From a virus: a stretch of DNA of 64,000 bases. Under the pieces are notes generated by a model. That model saw nothing but the letters and a program-made list of their open reading frames with translations, made no database searches and was not told the origin of the DNA. This document shows, piece by piece, positions 45,296 through 45,625 of this stretch (positions are counted from its first letter, which is position 1; the number at the start of each line of letters is the position of its first letter). The stretch is taken from the IMG/VR virus record IMGVR_UViG_3300028393_000022, one strand, 5' to 3'. A program made the translations under genes and the position numbers.

Positions 45296-45625
45296 ACCTT
45301 TTACTACAGAGAAACCGACCGATAATATTATCCCATAATGCGCATAGAGGCCGCAAACGCATTATGCTTTAATAAAGTCGATTCTACGTAGTAAAAGGTC
45401 TAAAGATAATAGGGATAATGCCCAAAAACATTATCCCTATAATCAGTATCCAATATACGCAGGTGTCAGTATTGGATCCCGCTCCAATTATTCCTATTAT
45501 CTCTCGATAATGAGCCCTTACCACTATGAGTTAATGGTTTTGGATTCGGCCAGACTGCGGTTTGTCTATAACTTGCCTCACCTGCCTTCAGAGATCTCCC
45601 AGACTCATAGCTCCTGATCTCGTTG
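45296..45625 (-). ncRNA. Candidate structured non-coding RNA downstream of tRNA(CAT)
   Basis: No long ORF; multiple stems, GAGA tetraloop, loop-to-distal pairing GCAGGTG/CACCTGC. Confidence 0.5.

Follow-up and report, generated by a model that had tools for sequence, protein, structure and literature searches.

Comparison with 29 distinct homologues shows that the window, the 64,000-nucleotide stretch of viral DNA analyzed here (IMG/VR record IMGVR_UViG_3300028393_000022), carries on its minus strand a conserved and independently bounded candidate RNA gene with a complex, covariation-supported fold. We lean towards the view that positions 45655-45441 are the gene for a stable, trans-acting and compactly folded small RNA of a new family, which would belong to an early unit and would serve as a protein- or RNA-binding scaffold or decoy. 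A preliminary description of this DNA had proposed that the minus strand encodes a structured non-coding RNA, and the covariation among the homologues bears this out. The motifs that it picked out can all be read in the sequence at the positions it assigned to them. It had also matched the element to no known family and named an Rfam search as a check; among the 4227 covariance models of Rfam 15, applied at their gathering thresholds, only two tRNAs are found in the window.

The window is part of the genome of an uncultured jumbo myophage, a giant phage, with matches to phage families for its tail sheath, tail tube, large terminase and helicases. Among cultured phages, Pseudomonas phage PA5oct is the closest relative, its terminase being 56% identical in amino-acid sequence. 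Read along the minus strand, a NUMOD3 homing-endonuclease gene is followed by an ORF-free stretch, tRNA-Met(CAT), the RNA, and a hairpin with a run of U, beyond which lie two convergent ORFs of the plus strand. The elements of the locus are:

46872-46138, minus strand: homing-endonuclease gene containing NUMOD3, directly upstream of the tRNA and RNA unit.
45851-45823, minus strand: putative promoter of the tRNA and RNA unit, with a weak -35 box TTGCTC (45851-45846), a 17-nt spacer and an extended -10 box TGcTATAAT (45831-45823).
45777-45700, minus strand: tRNA-Met, anticodon CAT (ARAGORN; Rfam tRNA, 57.7 bits).
45655-45441, minus strand: structured RNA of about 215 nt, from an invariant 5' AAAC to a 3' ACUGAUU, matched over its full length by covariance model R1 (204.7 bits, E = 6e-65, the E-values of R1 being rough).
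45440-45402, minus strand: intrinsic terminator found by a terminator scan, a 12-14-bp hairpin (AUAGGGAUAAUG...CAUUAUCCCUAU) with a U-rich tail.

This promoter-to-terminator layout agrees with the earlier suggestion that the tRNA, a putative promoter and the RNA form a single unit, and we infer that the RNA and tRNA-Met are co-transcribed. The presumed promoter was passed over by a scan for consensus promoters because its -35 box matches at just three of six bases, and equivalent boxes stand in the relatives (TTGCTA-17-TGTATAAT or TATAAT). At the other end, a hairpin and U-run follow the RNA in every row of alignment A1, and the terminator stem covaries. The RNA had previously been placed at 45446-45625, which proves too short, as the element reaches from 45655 to 45441 with the terminator extending to 45402. 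The tRNA-Met itself has a G1-C72 pair and is thus not of the initiator type. Its acceptor stem is prolonged by AU-rich complementary flanks (45680-45710 and 45771-45801; 31-nt arms, 87% complementary), the tRNA-Met precursor folds with z = -6.6, and a similar extension is predicted in two relatives (L029 and L011) and not in a third (L051). The extended stem may be a double-strand-specific processing stem of the RNase III type.

Several further sequence features surround the unit. The stretch that separates the endonuclease gene from the tRNA promoter holds a 27-nt direct repeat (CTCTAGCGGGGTTTTC...) three times, at a spacing of exactly 57 nt (46051-46191). A second motif, TACGTAGTAAAAGGTC (GACCTTTTACTACGTA on the minus strand), recurs at 44555-44570, 45385-45400 and 46714-46729; it is found at gene boundaries in the window and in relatives, adjoins the RNA copies of L091 and L080, and may serve as a signal specific to the phage or as a site for an endonuclease. 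A nested inverted-repeat element (45296-45400) sits just beyond the terminator of the RNA, and it lies outside the conserved RNA since homology with most relatives ends at about 45402. The two convergent plus-strand ORFs, 44719-44979 (86 aa) and 44972-45289 (105 aa), have neither a Pfam nor a PHROG match, and DNA matching both recurs in many relatives. Copies in the opposite orientation, of the first ORF in L003 and of the second in L017 and L029, suggest a mobile cassette of small genes.

Taken on its own, the sequence of the window says little about the RNA. Its folding energy does not rise above chance relative to shuffles (minus strand, z = -0.98; plus strand, z = -1.33), and the minimum free energy fold misses the consensus fold, from which it is 52-93 base pairs apart. 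A permissive Rfam scan of 45000-46200 at E ≤ 10 gave only chance matches of the snoRNA type far below threshold, a scan of seven homologous loci at E ≤ 5 gave no match that overlaps the RNA, and a blastn search with the locus for cultured relatives among 50,697 phage records matched the tRNA alone. Since the single sequence, Rfam and blastn were uninformative, the case rests on finding relatives, and the evidence beyond chance is comparative.

A conserved 112-aa ORF downstream (44360-44022) served as the query and led to 80 IMG/VR loci, in a subset of which the tRNA and about 390 nt downstream are conserved at 67-79% identity (blastn). Alignment of these loci with MAFFT revealed a conserved core with obvious compensatory changes. 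More distant members came from scanning viral and metagenome contigs for motifs and then iterating nhmmer; the motif matches in the metagenomes were mostly chance ones and were filtered by blastn and nhmmer, and R1 found every real one again. The model recovers 30 full-length members, 29 of them distinct, with pairwise identities of 37-100% (median 55%), all derived from metagenomes and located on related jumbo-phage contigs. The covariation alignment comprises the 29 distinct sequences, among which several covariation events are common by descent. PA5oct gives no match to R1 and so is without the RNA. A pattern scan of 185,579 bacterial species genomes returned two matches, both of them chance ones by R1, which is weak negative evidence because the pattern fits only part of the family.

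The homologues define 11 nested helices arranged around three three-way junctions. P1 closes the junction with P2 and P7; the second junction is reached via P2 and bears P3-P4a-P4b and P5-P6, and the third is reached via P7 and bears P8 and P9. P10 follows directly 3' of the P1 3' strand, with the intrinsic terminator after it. The pairing elements, with percentages giving the fraction paired among the homologues, are:

45651-45648 (CCGU) with 45482-45479 (GCGG), minus strand: closing helix P1; 96.6% paired, with 2 of 4 pairs changed on both sides (CG/GC/UA).
45646-45645 (GG) and 45642-45639 (AAGA) with 45554-45551 (UCUG) and 45549-45548 (CC), minus strand: P2, which closes domain I; 6 of 6 pairs covary.
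45630-45628 (CUG) with 45584-45582 (CAG), minus strand: P3; 97.7% paired, 3 of 3 pairs covary.
45621-45616 (GAGAUC) with 45596-45591 (GAUCUC), minus strand: P4a; 96% paired, 6 of 6 pairs covary.
45614-45612 (GGA) with 45603-45601 (UCU), minus strand: P4b, 3 bp within the P4 loop; 98.9% paired, outside the model.
45610-45604 (CUAUGAG, P4b loop) with 45530-45524 (CUCAUAG, P8 loop), minus strand: the two strands of the loop-loop kiss K1.
45577-45576 (GG) with 45560-45559 (CC), minus strand: P5, which encloses P6; P5 and P6 are 91% and 94% paired and every pair covaries.
45572-45570 (GUU), loop AUA, with 45566-45564 (GAC), minus strand: mini-hairpin P6, inside P5.
45544-45540 (UCCAA) with 45487-45483 (UUGGA), minus strand: P7, which closes domain II; 100% paired, 5 of 5 pairs covary.
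A45539 with U45490 (alignment columns 133 and 186), minus strand: a lone pair, AU in 14 sequences and GC in 15; 100% paired, outside the model.
45538-45535 (ACCA) with 45523-45520 (UGGU), minus strand: hairpin P8; 98.3% paired, 3 of 4 pairs covary.
45518-45516 (AGG, junction J8/9) with 45463-45461 (CCU, in the near-invariant, G-C-closed P10 loop ACACCUG), minus strand: the two strands of the loop-junction pseudoknot PK2.
45514-45506 (CUCAUUAUC) with 45501-45494 (GAUAAUAG), minus strand: hairpin P9; 94.9% paired, 7 of 8 pairs covary.
45478-45467 (ATCCAATA) with 45459-45446 (TATTGGAT), minus strand: hairpin P10, 12 bp; 97.1% paired, 10 of 12 pairs covary.

The curated structure on alignment A3 comprises 61 pairs (54 nested and the seven of K1), of which 55 change on both sides, and 96.0% of all cells hold standard pairs, although A3 was fitted to the nested model and its counts for the nested helices lean towards that model. 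None of 500 shuffles reaches the real structure on any measure, and slid controls are 31-44% paired. RNAalifold on a MAFFT-only alignment predicted 68 pairs, 44 of them with double-sided changes, and this result, like the pairings that lie outside the model, is free of the fitting bias of A3. The exchanges can be extensive: the strands of P2 appear as GCAG/CUGC, AGA/UCU (the window), GUGC/GCAC and GCAC/GUGC. Many G-U pairs are valid on the minus strand only.

The covariation shows two domains, each a three-way junction, which are joined by P1 and would be clamped by the 7-bp kiss between loops L4b and L8. This contact, K1, is the main tertiary contact, was absent from the preliminary description and lies outside the covariance model; it is 98.5% paired and all seven of its pairs covary, with its 5' strand carried by the P4a-P4b hairpin. 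The two loops are complementary over 7 nt in every member despite their differing sequences, and six different complementary loop pairs occur, namely CUAGAAG/CUUCUAG, CUAUGAG/CUCAUAG (the window), GUUAGAG/CUCUAAC, CCGGAAG/CUUCCGG, CUUACCA/UGGUAAG and, in L080, the strand-swapped CUUCUAG/CUAGAAG. Covariation likewise shows a docking of the P10 loop by three base pairs onto junction J8/9. This predicted pseudoknot, PK2, was found by a mutual-information scan (column 158 versus column 215), is 100% paired and also lies outside the model; nine sequences spread over several branches have AAG/CUU in place of AGG/CCU, and L091 has GAG/CUC.

Other partners for the P10 loop did not hold. The 5' GCAGG is ruled out as a partner of the CACCUGC loop, as the 5' GCAG covaries with the CUGC of P2, and the CAGG and UGGG of L4 and the UAGG of J9/7 are merely invariant or weak and are superseded by J8/9. 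Nor is there support for an antisense-seed role of the P10 loop: the window contains 14 occurrences of its complement, GCARGTG, and 14.6 are expected.

Much of the secondary structure read by eye from the single sequence survives this comparison. The GAGATC/GATCTC hairpin is the conserved helix P4a, the terminal stem ATCCAATA/TATTGGAT is P10, and ATTATC-GAGA-GATAAT is P9, with the qualification that its GNRA loop (GAGA in the window) is limited to the window and closer relatives and does not occur in distant ones. The proposed stem ACCATTA/TAGTGGT holds in its core, ACCA/TGGT, which is P8 and the conserved part. Two other stems dissolve: AGAC/GTCT is not conserved, GAC belonging to P6 and TCT to P2, and neither is GCTC/GAGC, of which GAGC is divided between P7 and P1. 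The suggested 7-bp pseudoknot of GCAGGTG (45585-45579) with CACCTGC (45465-45459) is paired in 66.5% of cells across the 29 sequences, the level of shuffled controls, and the CAG of GCAGGTG forms the 3' strand of the local helix P3. The idea that the terminal loop takes part in a pseudoknot was right in itself; the partner is the AGG of J8/9 and not GCAGGTG.

Twenty-six columns of the alignment are invariant, and 17 of these fall outside the nested helices, where they cluster in the 5' AAAC, a UGAG, J8/9, J9/7 and the P10 loop. The concentration of invariant nucleotides at J8/9, J9/7 and the P10 loop suggests that these three elements make up a pre-organized functional center, where a protein or RNA partner most likely binds. 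A ribozyme or a ligand-binding RNA would, however, account equally well for the high density of invariant nucleotides in the junctions.

The genomic context varies among the relatives in ways that bear on function. The RNA stands directly 3' of tRNA-Met(CAT) in 14 of the 18 homologous loci examined, separated from it by 3 nt in L221 and L216 and by 44 nt in the window, and in L003 a tRNA-Leu lies between tRNA-Met and the RNA. The remaining four loci (L016, L006, L054 and L080) have no tRNA, and in L016 and L006 a TTGCCC-17-TATACT promoter lies about 20 nt upstream of the invariant AAAACC. These four homologues without a tRNA, with a promoter of their own seen in two, argue for a separate trans-acting RNA gene. 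Where the RNA is present there is one copy per genome record. Across 81 loci, those with and those without the RNA form two sub-lineages that differ in many genes, so that co-occurrence points to no specific partner gene. In the sister lineage without the RNA (loci L005-L079), the slot between tRNA-Met and the 112-aa ORF holds tRNA-Arg(TCT) and tRNA-Leu(TAA) with CAGC-rich spacers between them. The RNA is lacking in a 98%-complete, 353-kb relative and in PA5oct, and is thus dispensable for this phage group.

We propose that the RNA would be transcribed early by the host RNA polymerase, together with tRNA-Met, from the extended -10 promoter. Its 3' end would be set by its own intrinsic terminator and its 5' end by the host nucleases that trim the tRNA, while in the relatives without a tRNA the promoter of the RNA itself would set the 5' end. 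Once folded, it would act as a scaffold or decoy during early infection.

A more far-reaching reading, which we consider rather unlikely, is that the family is a new RNA class of phages, catalytic or self-assembling in nature: either a self-cleaving ribozyme of about 215 nt by which the tRNA-Met precursor is matured, or a compact oligomer made of RNA alone and held by the 7-bp kissing loops; if so, the invariant J8/9-J9/7-L10 center would be the active or assembly site. The ribozyme would cut at or near the invariant 5' end (N|AAACC) and free the tRNA's 3' end, in the manner of HDV-like theta ribozymes beside phage tRNAs. We judge this unlikely, even though the RNA lies immediately 3' of tRNA-Met in most loci, with a spacer of just 3 nt in two, the invariant AAAC coincides exactly with the 5' boundary below a variable spacer, and a complex fold with many invariant unpaired nucleotides is typical of catalytic RNAs. 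Theta ribozymes are documented beside phage tRNAs (PMC10879173), and like them the window RNA adjoins a phage tRNA within what is predicted to be one transcript unit. A dedicated tRNA-processing device is nevertheless weakened by the four homologues that lack a tRNA, two of them with a promoter of their own. HDV-like ribozymes have a nested double pseudoknot with a catalytic C, whereas the topology found here is one of three three-way junctions, a loop-loop kiss and a loop-junction pseudoknot. Theta ribozymes, as minimal HDV-like ribozymes, are much smaller, the window RNA being roughly three times the minimal HDV-like size, and no Rfam ribozyme model, those of the HDV family included, gives a match even at E up to 10. 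As to assembly, the L4b-L8 pairing could form between molecules and yield dimers, rings or cages, in a small analogue of ROOL, GOLLD or the phi29 pRNA. Intramolecular and intermolecular pairing leave the same covariation, and K1 is long and varies freely in sequence among variants. Covariation had led a kissing loop of ROOL to be classed as tertiary before it turned out to be quaternary; tRNA islands are found close to both ROOL and GOLLD, with GOLLD env-38 downstream of a Met-tRNA (bioRxiv 10.1101/2024.12.08.627333). We regard such an assembly as distinctly unlikely, as the window RNA has no homology to ROOL or GOLLD and is 3-4 times smaller, and its two kissing loops sit on arms of the two junction domains joined by P1, an arrangement that also allows an intramolecular clamp.

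A cis-acting leader, that is, a riboswitch or attenuator that controls downstream genes through the terminator at 45440-45402, would explain a complex aptamer-like fold followed directly by an intrinsic terminator. Such a leader would stand 5' of a gene on the same strand, yet the next genes of the window (44719-45289) lie on the opposite strand and converge on the terminator, and the next same-strand gene in the relatives, the 112-aa ORF, has its own TTGACA/TATAAT promoter. As every same-strand gene past the terminator has its own promoter, and as neither a conserved alternative anti-terminator pairing nor an Rfam riboswitch match was seen, we hold a cis-regulatory role to be very improbable. 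We give next to no credence to a DNA-level element, such as an origin or repeat region, or to a short protein-coding gene in place of an RNA gene, for which AT-rich repeats and iteron-like units around the tRNA and short ORFs of 45-46 aa overlapping the region might be cited. Complementarity is kept through double changes at nearly all pairs, with G-U pairs that suit the minus strand only, the long-range pairings covary too, and the element has a promoter or tRNA before it and a terminator after it. Frequent indels in the alignment mean that the short ORFs are not preserved, which counts against coding.

The significance of the family lies in how much architecture is packed into 215 nt, with three junctions, a 7-bp kiss, a loop-junction pseudoknot and 26 invariant positions. 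Where tertiary architecture is conserved to this degree, the RNA usually proves to be a ribozyme, a ligand sensor or the core of an RNA-protein machine. Phage tRNA islands repeatedly house such RNAs (T4 rnaC and rnaD, ROOL, GOLLD), none of them with a known function. The present family is small, has a clean covariation-based model and includes natural variants with and without a tRNA, and hence offers a tractable case for the role of tRNA-linked phage RNAs. In practical terms, annotation, structure determination and functional assays can draw on the covariance model and on the tested secondary and tertiary structure.

Comparison with known RNAs separates the family from several others that it resembles locally. 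No bacterial RNase P RNA model gives a match at E ≤ 10, and the order of helices differs from the P1-P2-P3...P2'-P4'-P1' of that RNA with its long-range P4; the resemblance of GAAGUCUGGG to CR-I (of CR-I to CR-V) of RNase P is local, and this sequence falls within the variable kissing loop. Group I-like, tmRNA-like, T-box-like and VS-like readings fail on the order of helices and have no Rfam match. The 5' (G)AUAAACCG resembles the 5' handle of a type I-E CRISPR repeat, a reading dropped as a coincidence, as AAAC alone is invariant and there is no repeat hairpin.

The likeness to ROOL and GOLLD is one of setting and style, all being phage-encoded RNAs of unassigned function that adjoin a tRNA gene and have a complex fold held by kissing loops. 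They differ in scale, as many GOLLD members exceed 800 nt (bioRxiv 10.1101/2024.12.08.627333), and in evidence, the assembly of ROOL and GOLLD into multimeric nanocages having been shown experimentally whereas multimers of the window RNA are hypothetical; the Rfam models of both leave it unmatched.

The small stable RNAs of phage T4, rnaC (species 1, 139 nt) and rnaD (species 2, 119 nt), likewise of unassigned function, offer a closer parallel in gene order. In both phages a homing-endonuclease gene is followed by a tRNA and then by small RNA in a tRNA operon, and the T4 order of segB, tRNA-Arg, rnaD and rnaC, which matches the window order of NUMOD3 gene, tRNA and RNA, provides a precedent for reading the element as an RNA gene. 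The parallel does not extend to homology, since a search of T4 69000-75000 with R1, run without filters, gives 4.4 bits at best (E = 0.35), in a match that is on neither rnaC nor rnaD. T4 rnaC has a tRNA-like T arm, which the window RNA is without, and the window RNA is larger (215 nt), with three three-way junctions and two long-range pairings.

A catalogue of structured RNAs from IMG/VR (Comput Struct Biotechnol J 2023; PMC10690425) shares with our analysis both its source, IMG/VR phage contigs, and its covariation-based approach. Its 8,495 unnamed candidates measure 29-151 nt (mean 67 nt), so that, compared by description only, the 215-nt fold as a whole is not described there, and fragments of it may be among the candidates. 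From these comparisons with known RNAs, we rate the window RNA as a new family within the structured RNAs of unassigned function that are associated with phage tRNAs.
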